64,000 nt of DNA from the NCBI RefSeq assembly GCF_030384885.1, contig NZ_CP128615.1; one strand, given 5' to 3'. Shown here in pieces: positions 1,150 through 58,040 of this stretch. Position 1 is the first letter of the stretch. Every line of letters begins with the position of its first letter. The DNA comes from Escherichia coli (GTDB taxonomy: Bacteria > Pseudomonadota > Gammaproteobacteria > Enterobacterales > Enterobacteriaceae). Below the pieces are notes generated by a model. That model was not told where the DNA came from. It was given only the letters and a program-made list of their open reading frames with translations, and ran no database searches. The position numbers and the translations under genes were made by a program.

Positions 1150-2156
1150 TATTTGCGGTTGCCGGCTCGGGCAAGACCACGCTGCTGATACAGCGGTTGA
1201 GTGAGGACCGGCGGACGCTGATCCTGACCTTCACCGTGAATAATGAAGCGCATCTCCGGGCGCAGATTATCAGACGTTTTGGCTTTATCCCGGACGGGAT
1301 CAGGGTGATGACCTGGTTTGAGTTTCTGCACGGTTTTTGCTTCAGGCCTTTCCTGCAGGAGCAGCTGGCATCGCGTGGGCTGAGCTTCGACCAGCCCCCA
1401 CCCAGAATACCGCGCACGAATGCCCGGCATTATCAGGATCCCGCCGGACGGCTGTATCACCGGAGGCTCGCACACTTACTCACAGCCCGGGGGCTGCTGC
1501 CAGATATCCGTACCCGGCTTGCCCGTTACTACGATGAACTGCTTGTCGATGAAGTCCAGGACTTTGCCGGACATGACTTTAATTTTCTGCTGGAGCTCTG
1601 CCGCGCGGAAATCACTGTGCTCTGTTGCGGCGATTTTTATCAACATACCTTTGATACAAGCCATGACGGCAACGTTAATTCAACGCTGCACGATGACATT
1701 ACGCGATATGAGGCCCGCTTCGACGCAGCAGGTTTCACGGTTGACCGGGACACGCTCAACCGGACATGGCGTTGCTCAGCTTCAGTGTGCGAGTTTATCA
1801 CCGGACAACTGAACATCCGTATCGCTGCCCATGGGATACATGCCACCCTGATTGAAACGATCACAGATGCAGAGCGCACAGCCACCCTGCACGCCGATAA
1901 TACGGTGATTAAGCTCTTCTATCGTGAACATCACCGTTACGGCTGCTATTCCATGAACTGGGGCGTCAGTAAAGGGCTCGACCACTTTCAGGATGTCTGC
2001 ATTGTGATGGGATCTTCCCACTGGAAGCTTCTGACCCGTCAGGAACTGGCAGCCCTTCCACCGTCGTCCCGTAACAGGCTGTACGTGGCATGCTCACGGG
2101 CGCGCGGCAACATTTATTTTGTTCCCGAAATTCATCTGCGCCGATTCCGGAACTGA
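1134..2156 (+). CDS. UvrD-like superfamily 1 helicase core protein (short, 340 aa), GajB-like partner of the OLD nuclease
   Basis: Walker A AVAGSGKTT, motif II LLVDEVQDF, GDFYQ, C-terminal LYVACSRARGNIYFV; start overlaps upstream OLD gene by 16 bp (operon). Confidence 0.55.
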   Translation: MDKRVIFAVAGSGKTTLLIQRLSEDRRTLILTFTVNNEAHLRAQIIRRFGFIPDGIRVMTWFEFLHGFCFRPFLQEQLASRGLSFDQPPPRIPRTNARHYQDPAGRLYHRRLAHLLTARGLLPDIRTRLARYYDELLVDEVQDFAGHDFNFLLELCRAEITVLCCGDFYQHTFDTSHDGNVNSTLHDDITRYEARFDAAGFTVDRDTLNRTWRCSASVCEFITGQLNIRIAAHGIHATLIETITDAERTATLHADNTVIKLFYREHHRYGCYSMNWGVSKGLDHFQDVCIVMGSSHWKLLTRQELAALPPSSRNRLYVACSRARGNIYFVPEIHLRRFRN

Positions 2157-51059: not shown

Positions 51060-51140
51060 TTGGCGATTTCACCTTGAAATTCTCAGCCTAAACTGCCTAA
51101 TTACAATAAGTTAGATGTGAAATCGCCATGGCGAAATTAT
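51060..51140. promoter_or_regulatory. P1-type partition site parS
   Basis: Heptamer ATTTCAC/GTGAAAT and hexamer TCGCCA/TGGCGA boxes flanking an AT-rich (IHF-like) core, immediately downstream of parB. Confidence 0.6.
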
Positions 51141-52114
51141 TGACTCAAATTTCTGTCAAGGACCTCGTTGATAGCCTTGTCCAGTTCATCCTGAATCACT
51201 TTTGACATACGGCTAAACTCATAAGTCAGCGTACGCCCTTTCACACGCTTACGCGCGAACTTGTCCTTTTCTTCAAAAGACCAGAGTGGGGAAACCACTG
51301 ACTTTTCCTTGGGAGATGGATCTATCAATGCCTGAGATGCCTGAGAAATCAGCTTCAGTATACTGGCTTTCTGTTCGTCTTCTGGTCGCTCGCCTTCACT
51401 CAAAATTGCATCGAGCTGAGCTGATACAGACTGAATGAGTTCTTCAGGCGTTAATCCCTTTTCACTGAGTTTTTCATTAACTTCTAAAAGAAGTTTATAG
51501 TCACTAAACGATAGCTCCGACTGAACCGGGAACAGAGAAATCAAGTCTTGCGGTACGGCCGCCGCCTGCAGCGCCCTGGTAACTTTAGCTTGAGATAACC
51601 CCTCCAGTTCAGCAATTTCCTTTTGATTAAATCCGGACTCTTTAAGAGCGATCAATCTCAGGCCAATCTCCCGAAGATTATGTTCTTTAGCTGTCTGGAT
51701 ATCTTTAGCCAGTTGGCGAGCTTCATCAGCTGATAAATGCTCTTCGGTAACCATTACATCAAGGCCTGTACGGACAAAAATTGCTGAGGCTCGCCGTCTT
51801 GAACCATCCAGTATCTCAATCCTTTCACTTTGCTTAATACCAATACAGGGAAAGAACTGCTGAAACTTAATCGTCTGGATAATGGATTTCAGGGATTCCC
51901 TGGTCAGTGCAAGTTGATCTCTTCCGTTGTTTTCCTGGTTTACGAAGGTCTTACTTTCAACTTCAGATGCAGGCACCCGAACAAACCTGAACGTTACCTT
52001 CCTGCCGGTTTTTAAGGTAAATACCTGGCTTCTACCGGTGTCCGTCATTTCCGCAATTGACGCCTGGGTATTTAACTGTCTGCCGATGGTTTTTCTTTTC
52101 TCATTCGACATCAC
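51137..52114 (-). CDS. parB: P1-type partition protein ParB
   Basis: 325 aa; ...EILDGSRRRAS...GLSQAKVTRALQAA...RFARKRVKGR... strongly resembles P1 ParB. Confidence 0.9.
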   Translation of the reverse strand: MMSNEKRKTIGRQLNTQASIAEMTDTGRSQVFTLKTGRKVTFRFVRVPASEVESKTFVNQENNGRDQLALTRESLKSIIQTIKFQQFFPCIGIKQSERIEILDGSRRRASAIFVRTGLDVMVTEEHLSADEARQLAKDIQTAKEHNLREIGLRLIALKESGFNQKEIAELEGLSQAKVTRALQAAAVPQDLISLFPVQSELSFSDYKLLLEVNEKLSEKGLTPEELIQSVSAQLDAILSEGERPEDEQKASILKLISQASQALIDPSPKEKSVVSPLWSFEEKDKFARKRVKGRTLTYEFSRMSKVIQDELDKAINEVLDRNLSQ

Positions 52115-53316
52115 ATACCTCCGTTAGTACGAATGAACTCGATGCGATCAAAGACTGCCTTCGCAAAGTCTTCCGCTGCTGATTTTGCGCTTTTTAGTGC
52201 CTCTGTACTTCCATCATAGGTTGCTGGATTTGCTGAAATAACTGTGTCAAAAGTCTCCCCACAACGTTCGAAACCATCCAGTCTTGGCAGAACCATGTCT
52301 AGCATATCGGCACCGAAAACCTCTTTGGCCTGACTATGGCAAATTTTGTGATCAGACTTGTTCAGGATCTTGGACATGAAGCCGACATTACCGATGAGAT
52401 TGCAGGTGTGCCCATCCATTTCGATGGAATCTATGAGGGCAGGGAGGCTGGCCACAAACTTCAGGGAAGAATGAAAATCAACCGTCGCCGGTGGAAGAGG
52501 GGTCAACATCAGGTCTGCCGCCCCAATGCAGTTTTTCAGGAACGCATCAAGGTGAGGACCACTATCAAGGAAAATAAAGTCGTAGTCATGCTGGAGCTTG
52601 TCGATAATGTTCTCTTTAAGCACCGCATGAATATTTTTCCCTGGCAGATGTTCTTCACACAATCCCTTCCAGCCTTCAGCAAGGAATGCATCGTCAATGG
52701 AAGCGGGGATTACATCAACACCAGGGATAATAGACGGTACTATAAAATCGGAAAGTAATTCTTCACGAGACACGTTCTGGAGCATGGCCTGAGCAGCCGT
52801 ATTTTCAACCAAGCCCACTGAATTCTCATGGCTCAGGAACATTGTCAGAGATGCCTGCGGATCGAAATCGATGGCCAGAATACGCAGGTCTTCGAACAGA
52901 AGCTGAGGATGAGCTCGAAAAGCATGTGATAATGAAGCGGTAGAAACTGTCTTGGAACCACCACCTTTAAGATTACATACAAAAATCGTAAAGGCTTTAT
53001 CGAAGCGATCCCTGTACTTCGGTACTTTACGATGGTTATACAGATCGATGACATTCTGAATCGTCATCGCGTATTTCATCGTATTACCAGAAGGTTTCTT
53101 TTTAAAAATGTAGCCACCGGCTTCCATTTCGGACACAGCATACTCAACACTGCCTTTACTGAGCTTAGGCAGCTTATACAGAGCGGCTTTGCTGTATTCC
53201 TGATAGAACTCGGTAAGCTTCAATTCCTCTTTTTGCTGTCGGATACTTTCGCTCAAAGATGTCAGAAGCTTACCTGCACGTGTAGCGACTTTCCGTAACT
53301 GCTCAATATTGTCCAT
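52111..53316 (-). CDS. parA: P1-type partition ATPase ParA (type Ia)
   Basis: 401 aa; Walker A-containing NLKGGGSKTVSTASLSHA and N-terminal DNA-binding extension as in P1 ParA. Confidence 0.9.
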   Translation of the reverse strand: MDNIEQLRKVATRAGKLLTSLSESIRQQKEELKLTEFYQEYSKAALYKLPKLSKGSVEYAVSEMEAGGYIFKKKPSGNTMKYAMTIQNVIDLYNHRKVPKYRDRFDKAFTIFVCNLKGGGSKTVSTASLSHAFRAHPQLLFEDLRILAIDFDPQASLTMFLSHENSVGLVENTAAQAMLQNVSREELLSDFIVPSIIPGVDVIPASIDDAFLAEGWKGLCEEHLPGKNIHAVLKENIIDKLQHDYDFIFLDSGPHLDAFLKNCIGAADLMLTPLPPATVDFHSSLKFVASLPALIDSIEMDGHTCNLIGNVGFMSKILNKSDHKICHSQAKEVFGADMLDMVLPRLDGFERCGETFDTVISANPATYDGSTEALKSAKSAAEDFAKAVFDRIEFIRTNGGM

Positions 53317-54176: not shown

Positions 54177-55043
54177 CTATTGTTTTTTATCAAGAAAATT
54201 AAACAGCAAGCGACCATCTTCTTCAGTGGTATATGTTACCTTTAATGGCGTCTTCTCATTAATTTTCTTCAGAGCAGGTTCCAGGAAGGTACGCTTCATT
54301 TCAGCAATATTGTTTTTCTGCGAGGCAGGGAGCATAAACCTTTCACATAACCAGTCATGTGTGGTGATCCAGACACCAGTGCTCCGGAACTGACACAGGC
54401 TTTCATAAAGCCGGATGACACGAACACTATTAAGCTGGCCACAGTCATAGAGAGAATAGGTAGTGAACTGGGAGGTTAAGCCGACCAGGAATGGCATGAC
54501 CTTGTAGTTAAATTCAATCTGCCAGGAACCCCGGCCTCGCTTCATTCCTGCTTCAGCCAGCCACGGACGTTTAACTTCTTCAAACTCACCTTCTTTTGGA
54601 TAAAAGGTAACCGTTGATTCGCCCAGAGCATTTACCCCAGCCTTCACATCACGACTGGCGACAGACGTAGCGACATTGAAGTATTTGACGTAATCGGAAA
54701 CGCTGATTTTGAAGAGCGGCAATACGTCAGAGTCATCTTCCTGGCTGTCATTAAAATAGGCCTGCATGAGGCATAACCACAGCACACGTTTTGCCTGAAG
54801 AGGCAGGTAATATGCAGCTTCGGTCAATTCGTTAGATTGCTTTATACTGGCGCGTTTTTTAAACGTTTTAGTAGCTGGCAAGAGTGCTTGAGTATCCATT
54901 TCAATGCCTATGGGTAAATTTTTACCCACCCATAATGACAGTGAAAACAGAAATTGCAAGCTATCGCGATACTTATCCACCGGAAAAATCTGCACTTTAT
55001 CCACAAGTGGATAATTGAGAACTGAACTTGACCTCTTTCCCAT
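54177..55043 (-). CDS. repA: Rep_3-family replication initiator RepA (RepE of F-like)
   Basis: 288 aa; ...IKQSNELTEAAYYLPLQAKRVLWLCL...VIRLYESLCQFR... parallels F RepE. Confidence 0.85.
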   Translation of the reverse strand: MGKRSSSVLNYPLVDKVQIFPVDKYRDSLQFLFSLSLWVGKNLPIGIEMDTQALLPATKTFKKRASIKQSNELTEAAYYLPLQAKRVLWLCLMQAYFNDSQEDDSDVLPLFKISVSDYVKYFNVATSVASRDVKAGVNALGESTVTFYPKEGEFEEVKRPWLAEAGMKRGRGSWQIEFNYKVMPFLVGLTSQFTTYSLYDCGQLNSVRVIRLYESLCQFRSTGVWITTHDWLCERFMLPASQKNNIAEMKRTFLEPALKKINEKTPLKVTYTTEEDGRLLFNFLDKKQ

Positions 55044-55260
55044 AGCTTGTTGATGCGTATCCCATAGCTTGTTGACACAAAACCCACTGATACGTGATTA
55101 ATTTCCCATATTATGTTTACCAGTTGCCCATACAGGCCCCCTCTCAGGCCGCACTGTACGCGGCTTTCAGGCTCCCTAAAAGATGTAAAATAAAGAAAAA
55201 GAATAAAAAAGTACTTTATAAAAATATGCCCGTGGATAAGTGGATAACCCCGAGGGGAGG
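55030..55260. promoter_or_regulatory. Probable replication origin: short repeats over the repA start, AT-rich stretch, two tandem DnaA boxes (55231-55249)
   Basis: CCCATAGCTTGTTGA x2, A/T-rich 55170-55230, GTGGATAAGTGGATAAC. Confidence 0.5.
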
Positions 55261-55772
55261 TGATTTTTCAGGCATTGAGCGTAAGCAGAATTTATAAGTT
55301 TTGTTCCCTGGTGCTTCCTCGCTCACTCGGGGCTTCGCCCTGTCGCTCGACTGCGGCGAGCACTGCTGGCTCGATCATATCCGTGGCCGGAAGATACTAC
55401 TCCTCCCCCGAGTCGCTCTCCAGAGCCGGCTACAGCGAGACAACCCGCACGAAGATTTCTATCGTCCCTGCAGACATATTCGAATCGTTTTTATTAACCC
55501 TGGCTTCCGTCGTGACAGAACACTACGTCCTGTAAAAGGGGGACTAAGGCCCCTGAATCACACACCTGAATAATGCGGAGTTTTACGATAATGTCATTGC
55601 TGGAAACTTTCCTGACCGCTTCTCAGGGGGCAACAATCCTGTTCCTTGCCATGCTGATCTACTGGCAAAAGCGATAAATCCAAGCGGGCTGGCCTTTGGC
55701 CAGCTTCGCTGTATAAGGGGAAAAATGCGGCATATCCAGACATTTCACTAGGCAATTTGAATTCAGATATCT

Positions 55773-56063
55773 ATGCTTGGGATCCGGTCAACAGGAGGTA
55801 ACAAGATGAAACTTGAAACTATACAGATAGATAATACCGTAAGGAGTGGTCTTAATTCTTTCACTGACGGGGTGATTATTCGTGATACAAAGGTATTGAT
55901 CACGCTCAATCTCCCGGATGGACAGAAAACCACTATTGAGGGGGAATGGCGGCATATGTCGGACGCCAACAGGTTGTCAGAACGTATTACGATGCTTCAG
56001 CATGCGATCTATGAGCAGTATGAGGAATACAGAGCAGATATTCCCGTCAGCTGGTCCAGATAA
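55773..56063 (+). CDS. Hypothetical protein (probable start at internal MKLETIQ, preceded by AGGAGG)
   Basis: ORF only; no recognisable motif. Confidence 0.3.
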   Translation: MLGIRSTGGNKMKLETIQIDNTVRSGLNSFTDGVIIRDTKVLITLNLPDGQKTTIEGEWRHMSDANRLSERITMLQHAIYEQYEEYRADIPVSWSR

Positions 56064-56120: not shown

Positions 56121-56899
56121 TTAAATATTCCCTTTCAGCATGGCTACCGCATCCGCTTCGGGCATCTGAAACTGAACTCGATGCCGCGCAGCAACATCAA
56201 GTGCGAACACCTTCGTATAGACTTCCGTCGAGCTAATCGATTTGTGGCCCATCAGGCTCTGCAAAACCTTCAGTGGTATGCCGGCATACAGCACATATGC
56301 ATCGCGTAGGAGTGGCGGAACGTATGCGGGGTGACCGGCACCGAGAATGTCACCCCGTCGACGGCGGCCGCTTCAACCGCTTCGCCAATCCAGGTCCGTA
56401 CTGTCCGGTCGGTGATGTCCCAGATGCGGGCTTTCTCTGTTCTGCCGGTACGCTTGTTGCGTCTTTCCAGCGGAATTTTCAGGGTGGCCACCATCATCTG
56501 CAGCTGGCTGACGTAGTGGTGATCGGAAAGCGGAACCAGACGATGAGCCTGGCTACCGGCGGGAGCTCGGCCGGCTGTCCTGGCCGCTTTTTCGGTGCGC
56601 TGCTTAAGCGTGGCCAGCTGCACGAACGGATACGGTGGCACCAGCGAAAAATCCCCCCGGGTCAGCGCCAGCGCCTCGTTGATACGTGCGCCGGTGTTCC
56701 AGAGGGTTGCCAGCAGCATCTTGCGGTGCAAATCGGGCACATAATGGAGCAGGGCGCTGACTTCCGGTGCCAGCAGGTATTTCGGTAGTTCATCTTGAAC
56801 GAGCGCCATCTGGCGCAGGGCCAGCGCGGCGGGATAGTCAATGGCCACCGGCATTTGCGCCGGCTGCTGCGGGTGAGAATATGATAAGAGGCCGCTCAT
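56121..56899 (-). pseudogene. Tyrosine site-specific recombinase (ResD/XerD-like resolvase), frameshifted
   Basis: N-terminal 209 codons (track 56270-56899) end at ...TFRHSYAMHM; the conserved C-terminus ...LYAGIPLKVLQSLMGHKSISSTEVYTKV... continues in another frame (2-bp shift near 56285). Confidence 0.7.
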
Positions 56900-57639
56900 T
56901 GGTTTGACATTCCATCAGGTATCACTAATTGATTCCACTCCCTGTTGCGGGTAGCTTCAGCAGCGCGCAGGGCTCTTTCGCGCCTCCAGACTTTACGAAA
57001 CACGGAAACTGCAGACCATTCATCATGACCTGTAAGACGTGTTTCGGGCATCCCGGTTGCCTTGCGCAGACGGACGGCAAGAATGACAGCGTTGATGCCC
57101 AAGCGCGTGAACTGATACTGCCGTTCCCTGAAATAGTCCTTATGCCAAGGAGGGTCGGAGTATTCGGCGGCATATGCAATTGCCCTGTGGGCCTCATCCT
57201 GGAGCACCGGCAGTTCACGGATGCGATACATAAGACGTGGCTCTAAAGTCCGCCAGTCACCGGAGACATCGATCAGATTCAGTTCAGGGTAATTCGTGAC
57301 AGCTTTTCTCTCAGGCTGGGGGGCATCATCATCCTGGCCGTCATCCGTCACAACCCGGAAACAACCCTCAGCATACCGTTCAAGCATGAATACCAACTCG
57401 GTGGCAATGTAATGCAGTTCCTTTTTCATTTTATCTTCTGACGCCTGTCTCTCACGCTTAAGCGTGAAATAATGTGTCAGCCAGATGCCAGTGAGTGTTA
57501 TACCCCCAGTAAGCAGGCCAGTGATAAGCCCGGTTGCCACGTTTCCCCAGATCCCCGCCCCTTGATTAATCAGCTGTACGGAAACCGGATGGGATGTCGC
57601 AGCAACTATACTCTCAGTTGCGGCCTGTATATCAGTCAT
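56896..57639 (-). CDS. Hypothetical membrane protein (247 aa)
   Basis: Predicted TM segment GIWGNVATGLITGLLTGGITLTGIWL; start overlaps the recombinase gene. Confidence 0.4.
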   Translation of the reverse strand: MTDIQAATESIVAATSHPVSVQLINQGAGIWGNVATGLITGLLTGGITLTGIWLTHYFTLKRERQASEDKMKKELHYIATELVFMLERYAEGCFRVVTDDGQDDDAPQPERKAVTNYPELNLIDVSGDWRTLEPRLMYRIRELPVLQDEAHRAIAYAAEYSDPPWHKDYFRERQYQFTRLGINAVILAVRLRKATGMPETRLTGHDEWSAVSVFRKVWRRERALRAAEATRNREWNQLVIPDGMSNQ

Positions 57640-57689
57640 TGATCATTTACCCCTTTATATTCCTGAGAAATCCCGCCCTCTGTCCGTAG

Positions 57690-58040
57690 TCAGCGGCCGG
57701 CAGCCAGCTCTTCAGCCAGTTTCACAAACCTTTTGTGCTCAGTCTGCAGGTAATGGCTGTAAATCCGGGCATCACGTTCTGTCAGTCCGGATGGATTGCC
57801 GGTGAAGTAACGTTGCAGCACCGCAATACAGTGATTGTAGGTATCGAGATCATATTCCCAGTTTCCCAGCTCACCGGCCGCATCCAGTTCCTGGCGAAAC
57901 TGCTCGTATTTACGGAGCAGAATGCCAAGACCTAATTCTGTTGCAGCATAAAGATTATTTTCTCCTGGCGCGGAAATCGCATTACGGATTTTTTCAAAAG
58001 CATAACTGAAATCATTTCTCTCATTGAATGCAGTAAACAT
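57690..58040 (-). CDS. Hypothetical protein (116 aa)
   Basis: ORF only; co-oriented with and 50 bp upstream of the membrane protein gene. Confidence 0.4.
   Translation of the reverse strand: MFTAFNERNDFSYAFEKIRNAISAPGENNLYAATELGLGILLRKYEQFRQELDAAGELGNWEYDLDTYNHCIAVLQRYFTGNPSGLTERDARIYSHYLQTEHKRFVKLAEELAAGR

Follow-up and report, generated by a model that had tools for sequence, protein, structure and literature searches.

The small ORF and its neighbours in the IncR replication region

The window, i.e. the whole stretch of 64,000 nucleotides from Escherichia coli that was analyzed (contig NZ_CP128615.1), carries DNA identical to the IncR backbone of hundreds of Klebsiella, E. coli, Enterobacter and Salmonella plasmids. 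In this backbone, parB, parA, repB, iteron-like repeats, a ColE1-like priming site, a small ORF, an 85-aa ORF and resD follow one another in this order. The features relevant to the small ORF are:

51137-52114, minus strand: parB
52111-53316, minus strand: parA
54177-55043, minus strand: repB
55005-55014 and 55238-55247: two DnaA-box-like sequences, AAGTGGATAA
55036-55132: three iteron-like repeats, with spacings of 22 and 44
55313-55362: homologue of the ColE1/pBR322-type primosome-assembly (PriA n') site, aligning with positions 1515-1568 (reverse complement) of the ColE1-type plasmid L033
55431-55590, plus strand: conserved non-coding region, presumed promoter and 5' UTR, aligning with locus L019
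55538-55553: small GC hairpin, GGGGG-N7-CCCC, preceding the start codon by about 40 nt
55573-55590, plus strand: N-terminal extension MRSFTI (six codons) of the 34-aa RefSeq model, probably not translated
55577-55580, plus strand: Shine-Dalgarno sequence GGAG, read from the sequence, 10 nt upstream of the ATG at 55591
55591-55677, plus strand: small ORF of 28 codons and a TAA stop, product MSLLETFLTASQGATILFLAMLIYWQKR, delineated from sequence, translation and the homologues P0081/L019, L025 and L026-L036
55684-55709: hairpin with the core GCTGGCC-TTT-GGCCAGC, 6 nt past the stop, right-hand boundary of the module
55806-56063, plus strand: 85-aa ORF with an AGGAGG Shine-Dalgarno sequence, starting 128 nt past the stop of the small ORF
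56270-58040, minus strand: resD-like tyrosine recombinase gene in an apparent operon with two further ORFs

The earlier note had placed the small ORF near an origin region, and the iteron-like repeats, the DnaA-box-like sequences and repB are indeed all close to it. The coordinates, the plus strand, the ATG and TAA codons and the translation that it gave were likewise all reproduced from the window sequence. The segment at 55313-55362 is presumably a priming site, given the pBR322 sequence and the alignment to the ColE1-type plasmid. Because of this homology, 4,255 plasmids match positions 55300-55800 whereas only about 1,800 match the small ORF. All the IncR replication regions read here have the small ORF beside the rep gene.

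Homologues of the 85-aa ORF, with identities down to 68%, occur in Klebsiella, Enterobacter and Serratia, and plasmid pKPN5 of strain MGH 78578 is one of the carriers of this gene; the ORF belongs to no Pfam or NCBIfam family. Since it is found both with and without the small ORF upstream, comparison of these loci indicates that it is a separate module. The resD-like gene gives weak matches to Xer-family HMMs and seems to share an operon with two ORFs upstream of it, of 247 aa and 116 aa, neither of which has an assigned family.

Considered by itself, without comparative data, the small ORF is not beyond what chance provides. The window harbors, in its six frames, 219 ATG-initiated ORFs of 24-40 codons, six of which (2.7%) are at least as hydrophobic as the small ORF, and 112 ORFs of at least 20 codons lie within 7 kb. 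Among the six hydrophobic ORFs, only the small ORF encodes at least two lysines or arginines in the last four residues. The best 17-residue Kyte-Doolittle mean of its product is 1.82 and its C-terminus is QKR.

The earlier note described the ORF as unannotated, which is true of the ORF track it worked from. RefSeq plasmid records have the same frame, annotated by PGAP as a 34-aa hypothetical protein (WP_032409716.1) that starts at the equivalent of position 55573, and a 37-aa allele is annotated as WP_032072094.1. No Shine-Dalgarno sequence was found upstream of the ATG at 55573, and the six additional codons themselves contain the Shine-Dalgarno sequence of the start at 55591. Furthermore, the ATG of the PGAP model is AAG in L019, the extension shows replacement changes among close relatives of the window (S>R in L009, I>M in L004 and L027), and no MRSFTI-type extension was seen in the diverged clades. 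Therefore, the extension is probably untranslated, and the 28-codon start at 55591 is better supported than the 34-codon RefSeq start at 55573.

Conservation of the ORF in plasmids and phage-plasmids

The earlier note had made the case for the ORF depend in part on its conservation in homologous regions. The ORF proved to be conserved, both in the clade of the window (IncR and IncFIA(HI1) plasmids, 88-100% DNA identity) and in diverged plasmid clades. It is present on about 1,770-1,840 of the 72,556 plasmids of PLSDB, and hundreds of plasmids have an intact copy showing 100% identity. Within the window clade, two different Rep genes adjoin the same module. The 28-aa and 31-aa alleles of this clade differ by an in-frame tandem duplication of 9 nt, and substitutions are mostly silent (for instance, six silent changes and one replacement between L005 and L009). 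The 3' half of the ORF (55624-55658) shows 100% nucleotide identity in this clade, while the 5' half shows about eight silent changes; this identity could reflect an extra constraint at the nucleotide level or a recombination tract.

A profile search of 1.84 billion proteins retrieved a diverged homologue, P0081 (MMSLLEMFLSAPLLSQMATILLLALLMRWKKNE, E = 1.2e-4). Its locus, L019, belongs to an unrelated conjugative plasmid from metagenomes. It shares 66% DNA identity with positions 55431-55670 of the window, and 10 codons carry silent changes at the 19 identical residues. Further clades, mostly unannotated, were found by tblastn and then read directly:

L025: IncFIC plasmid
L026 and L028-L032: pHCM2/SSU5-like phage-plasmids (Salmonella Typhi, Citrobacter, E. 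coli, Klebsiella), always 33 codons; in pHCM2, the locus lies around NC_003385.1:22,300-22,600
L033: 1.9-kb ColE1-type plasmids (NZ_CP117697.1, 1,888 bp, locus at 500-840)
L034: IncN/IncY plasmid
L035 and L036: Enterobacter plasmids

The loci from pHCM2/SSU5-like phage-plasmids and from ColE1-type, IncN/Y and Enterobacter plasmids (n = 10) are hereafter called group 2, and those on the side of the window group 1. Comparison of the profiles of the two groups by hhalign gave a probability of 96.5% (E = 1e-9).

The alignment of 14 sequences has the signature of a protein-coding gene. Frame +1 is free of stop codons in all 14, each of the remaining frames is interrupted in several sequences, and third codon positions change most. 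The Nei-Gojobori (NG86) dN/dS ratio is 0.07-0.45 in all pairs with unsaturated synonymous sites, the synonymous difference between clades being 0.47-0.85, i.e. near saturation. Moreover, a Shine-Dalgarno-like purine run lies 6-10 nt before the start codon in nearly every clade (GGAG in L019, AAGGA in L025 and L033, GAGG in L026, AAGGAG in L035), the one in L034 being weak. Since a single frame is open, dN/dS is well below 1, the length change is in frame and Shine-Dalgarno sequences accompany the start codon in nearly every clade, sequence comparison indicates that 55591-55677 is very probably a real protein-coding gene.

The family, whose members are about 28-36 aa long, thus far comprises peptides from IncR, IncFIA(HI1), IncFIC, IncN/Y and ColE1-type plasmids, a metagenomic conjugative plasmid, phage-plasmids and Enterobacter plasmids. 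They share an N-terminal part of 20 conserved residues, M-x-[ED]-[LM]-[LF]-x-x-F-[LI]-x-A-[PS]-[LP]-x-[ST]-Q-x-[AL]-T-[IV], followed by a hydrophobic C-terminal half. F8, A11, P12 and Q16 are invariant in group 2. The hydropathy of the homologues is 1.97-3.34 (2.6-3.3 in group 2), against 1.82 for the window allele. The single transmembrane helix announced by the earlier note is consistent with the hydrophobicity of the peptide, which is probably single-pass, and we infer that it inserts in the inner membrane as a single helix. The basic C-terminus, also put forward at that stage, is a property of the IncR, L019, L025 and phage-plasmid clades; the ColE1, IncN and Enterobacter peptides end differently (HSLLN, PHLF and PILL).

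Eight members of the family, compared with the HMMs of NCBIfam, Pfam and PADLOC, gave no match at E values up to 10, and PHROGs returned only weak matches to families of unknown function (E >= 0.017). The pHCM2-type peptide had no tblastn match in phages. A full-text literature search for the peptide strings and the WP accessions retrieved nothing relevant; searches by topic brought up only the DqlB precedent, and no ribosome-profiling or proteomics results for this locus. The family is newly described and uncharacterised, and the small ORF is its first-described member, although the kind of gene, a small plasmid-borne gene for a membrane peptide, is known.

A decayed copy was also encountered in L012 (NZ_KY454639.1, around 2440-2545). 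Its upstream region is deleted, a 1-nt deletion in a G-run causes a frameshift and a stop created by CAA>TAA shortens the original frame. A DUF1173 gene takes the place of the 85-aa gene in L012, behind the same promoter region.

Flanking elements and a candidate divergent small RNA

In terms of sequence, the conserved upstream region, the Shine-Dalgarno sequence, the ORF and the hairpin that follows it make up a self-contained module of about 280 bp located in the replication/maintenance region of IncR and IncFIA(HI1) plasmids. The neighbour genes of the small ORF differ in each clade, and no neighbouring protein gene is conserved. Over the 125-160 nt upstream of the ORF, mismatch amounts to 0.10-0.29, compared with 0.63-0.69 at the synonymous sites of the ORF (0.29 and 0.69, respectively, in the comparison with L019). 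The slower change of this DNA indicates that the ORF comes with a functional non-coding element.

Both arms of the stem at 55538-55553 have changed between the window (GGGG/CCCC) and L019 (GGAG/CUCC) in an RNAalifold analysis of five group-1 sequences, and distant clades have a hairpin at the equivalent position. For the group-1 5' region as a whole, RNAalifold gave -4.4 kcal/mol and supported this small hairpin only. On the other side of the ORF, the hairpin at 55684-55709 is conserved, with a loop change in L009; it has no T-run and was hence not called by the terminator scan. Distant clades have a canonical intrinsic terminator in its place, and in the phage-plasmid copies (L026, L028-L032) a terminator with compensatory changes lies directly 3' of the ORF.

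No clear transcription signal could be assigned to the ORF. A consensus scan for promoters and terminators found three promoter-like sites, compared with 2.3 expected, and no terminator, while PWM scans of both strands of 12 loci revealed no positionally conserved sigma-70 promoter for the ORF in any clade. The best candidate, GTGACA (55512-55517)-15-TAAAAG (55533-55538), has a PWM score of 3.1. The antisense RNA that the earlier note proposed to look for found no counterpart either: by consensus-based prediction, which may miss an RNA, the window clade, L019 and L025 have no conserved minus-strand promoter or terminator. Two minus-strand candidates were rejected. The first, ATGACA-16-CATTAT (55597-55570), is weak, its -35 box is the complement of the ATG-TCA codons, and it is degraded in L007, L019 and L025; the second, TGGATA-17-TATACA, lies 3' of the ORF and is likewise weak, with mutation in L007. 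A search of the 50-60 kb part of the window against Rfam gave no match at E values up to 1. An Frpo-like single-strand promoter or long hairpin was also discarded, DNA and RNA folds of 55290-55720 being no better than those of shuffled sequences (z = -0.35 for the global fold).

The situation is different in group 2. All ten loci have a minus-strand promoter, TTGACG-17-TA(A/T)nAT, located 42-46 nt from the ATG and facing away from the ORF; according to the PWM scans, it is absent from the window clade, L019 and L025. Its predicted product is an RNA of 92-110 nt with a strong terminator. This terminator covaries in RNAalifold analysis, and inspection of the sequences by eye showed compensatory changes in an internal stem-loop; in the alignment across sub-clades, the terminator alone is supported. 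The candidate gene for this divergent RNA lies at the following positions:

L026: 3821-3919, minus strand
L033: 508-617, minus strand
L034-L036: upstream of 3501

In four related loci, Rfam detected only RNAI, a tRNA and sub-threshold noise, and the divergent RNA corresponds to no Rfam family. Windowed duplexes between this RNA and the ORF mRNA, taken from -40 to +110, were no better than those obtained with shuffled sequences (P = 0.17-0.99), although the two transcripts may overlap if the mRNA starts further upstream.

Possible roles of the peptide and its RNA

The resemblance to type I toxins raised by the earlier note stands as far as the peptide is concerned, since it is small and hydrophobic with a predicted transmembrane helix; it finds no echo in a match to a curated toxin family or in a conserved antisense promoter predicted in the window clade. 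Nevertheless, several observations favour a toxin-antitoxin-like role. The module is autonomous, with different neighbours in every clade, and it is carried by a ColE1-type plasmid of only 1,888 bp. Each of the ten group-2 loci couples the peptide gene with a divergent RNA candidate, the non-coding DNA upstream changes less than synonymous sites do, and the DqlB-agrB system provides a precedent (PMC12365149). Other observations go against a toxin. The gene is intact on about 1,800 plasmids without a recognisable antitoxin, which disfavours strong toxicity. In the window clade, L019 and L025, no conserved antisense or divergent promoter or terminator was detected, and the group-2 RNA is no more complementary to the ORF mRNA than shuffled sequences are. 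In addition, the specific motif F-x-x-A-P-L-x-S-Q looks more like a protein-contact surface than like a membrane-damaging helix, the hydrophobicity of the window allele is moderate, no known toxin family matches and no convincing sigma-70 promoter precedes the ORF.

Weighing these points, we consider it possible, and put forward only tentatively, that these peptides are the protein component of an addiction module resembling type I toxin-antitoxin systems. The ancestral form would have consisted of the peptide gene and a divergently transcribed small RNA of about 100 nt, a pairing that would still be present in pHCM2/SSU5-like phage-plasmids and in ColE1-type, IncN/Y and Enterobacter plasmids. 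The IncR copy of the window would derive from this form by loss of the small-RNA promoter, the peptide gene and the conserved upstream region having been retained. A real gene and a toxin-like mechanism, taken jointly, make up our best explanation of the locus, which may nonetheless well be wrong. The more specific proposal that the ORF is the IncR member of a new two-gene maintenance module or type I family, composed of a membrane peptide of about 30 aa and a divergent RNA of about 100 nt, and extending over IncR, IncFIA(HI1), IncFIC, IncN/Y and ColE1-type plasmids and pHCM2/SSU5-like phage-plasmids, is more doubtful. If RNA-mRNA pairing is really absent, the peptide/RNA module would work on another principle, such as mutually exclusive overlapping divergent promoters.

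The closest precedent for a toxin-antitoxin-like module is the DqlB-agrB type I system of pOXA-48, which was overlooked in unannotated DNA adjoining repA and recently validated (PMC12365149). Like the present family, it involves a gene for a hydrophobic peptide of about 30 aa in apparently empty DNA beside a plasmid replication gene and, like the group-2 clades, it has a divergently transcribed small RNA adjoining the peptide gene. However, agrB pairs with 35 nt of the dqlB 5' UTR (PMC12365149), whereas the present family shows no RNA-mRNA complementarity beyond that of shuffled sequences. DqlB (MINLLIVVLRAVVAVSNAVIAVLELIRQYFD) matches NCBIfam NF041473, for which it served as a positive control (73.5 bits, 8.7e-21), whereas no peptide of the present family does. 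Furthermore, dqlB is found on only 0.4% of IncR plasmids (PMC12365149). The DinQ-like family was defined by nucleotide similarity of the 5' UTR to dinQ (PMC5066626). Membership of this family, suggested by the C-terminal LLN shared by L033, was ruled out by HMM and DNA comparison: the MG1655 dinQ-agrAB and pOXA-48 dqlB loci, which detect each other by blastn, gave only chance matches of 12-35 nt (E >= 0.34) with seven loci of the present family, and DinQ had no tblastn match in plasmids.

The group-2 layout, with the small RNA on the left, the gene for a hydrophobic peptide of 27-36 aa on the right and a terminator for each gene, is the one of the chromosomal pairs tisB/istR-1, zorO/orzO, shoB/ohsC and dinQ/agrB, whose peptides are of similar length. 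The chromosomal type I small RNAs have 18-35 nt of complementarity to the 5' UTR of the toxin (see also PMC3919570). By contrast, the group-2 RNA shows no pairing above shuffled sequences and the window copy has no small-RNA promoter. The hok/sok system also consists of a small membrane peptide gene borne by a plasmid maintenance region. Hok is a peptide of 50-52 aa whose gene overlaps the mok frame, and Sok is a cis-antisense RNA located within the leader. Unlike hok/sok, the present family has no HMM match, no overlapping reading frame and no conserved antisense promoter.

The main alternative is that the peptide is a non-toxic small membrane protein modulating a membrane-associated protein of the host or the plasmid, the N-terminal motif being the contact surface and the hydrophobic half the anchor. 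MgrB, AcrZ, MgtS and PmrR, which are small regulatory inner-membrane proteins (reviewed in PMC12648545), are comparable in size and likewise have a single predicted transmembrane helix and a short conserved motif outside the hydrophobic core. A modulator would account for purifying selection being strongest on the N-terminal motif, with F8, A11, P12 and Q16 invariant in group 2, for an intact gene in a window clade devoid of recognisable antitoxin, for the only moderate hydrophobicity of the window allele and for a divergent RNA that is not complementary to the mRNA. However, MgrB, AcrZ, MgtS and PmrR are chromosomal and stress-regulated and have known partners, whereas the present family is found only on plasmids and phage-plasmids, no partner can be named and no neighbouring protein gene is conserved in any clade. 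Moreover, the presence on a 1.9-kb cryptic plasmid and the tight linkage to a small RNA fit a selfish maintenance module better. We regard the modulator as a possible explanation short of a probable one; the odds that the small ORF encodes a small regulatory membrane peptide are no lower than those of a type I toxin.

It could also be imagined that the small ORF is a leader peptide (uORF) controlling the 85-aa ORF (55806-56063) through the hairpin at 55684-55709, which lies only 6 nt after it, the co-oriented gene starting 128 nt past the stop. This reading is largely refuted by synteny and appears very unlikely: L014-L018 have the 85-aa gene but no small ORF, the homology of L018 to the window starting directly after the hairpin, and other clades have unrelated downstream genes or a full terminator. 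Selection on the amino-acid sequence across 60% divergence would also be unexpected for most leader peptides, and the global fold is no better than that of shuffled sequences. Finally, a chance ORF in DNA conserved for another reason (cis element of the origin, priming site, recombination site or non-coding RNA) would agree with the frequency of small hydrophobic ORFs in the window (6 of 219), with the proximity of iterons and of a ColE1-like primosome-assembly sequence and with the identity of the 3' half at the nucleotide level in the window clade, but it is highly improbable given one frame open in 14 sequences from seven plasmid backbones, the low dN/dS at near-saturated synonymous sites, the conserved Shine-Dalgarno sequence and stop position, the lack of an Rfam family and the unexceptional single-strand folds.

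In Klebsiella and other Enterobacterales, genes for carbapenemases and other resistances are found on IncR and IncFIA(HI1) replicons, and the resident plasmids of Salmonella Typhi include pHCM2. A conserved origin-side gene present on about 2,000 sequenced plasmids, with no family and mostly unannotated outside the IncR clade, is a gap in plasmid biology. If the peptide is an addiction or host-modulating factor, it would be, like DqlB-agrB, a maintenance determinant missed because of its size, and it could bear on plasmid curing. If it is a harmless accessory peptide, the gain would be smaller, in that annotation pipelines could use the right start codon and a definition of the family. We consider the locus to be of moderate interest, since it is widespread among clinically important plasmids and, in related elements, linked to an unexplained RNA gene.

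The ColE1-type plasmid of L033 (NZ_CP117697.1; 409-439 and 924-1025) also encodes RNAI, detected at 92.6 bits, and has a cer-like XerC/XerD core, GGTGCGGGCAA-CGGATG-TTATGGTAAAT. The peptide/RNA module occupies about 330 bp of its 1,888 bp and is among the few recognisable features there.
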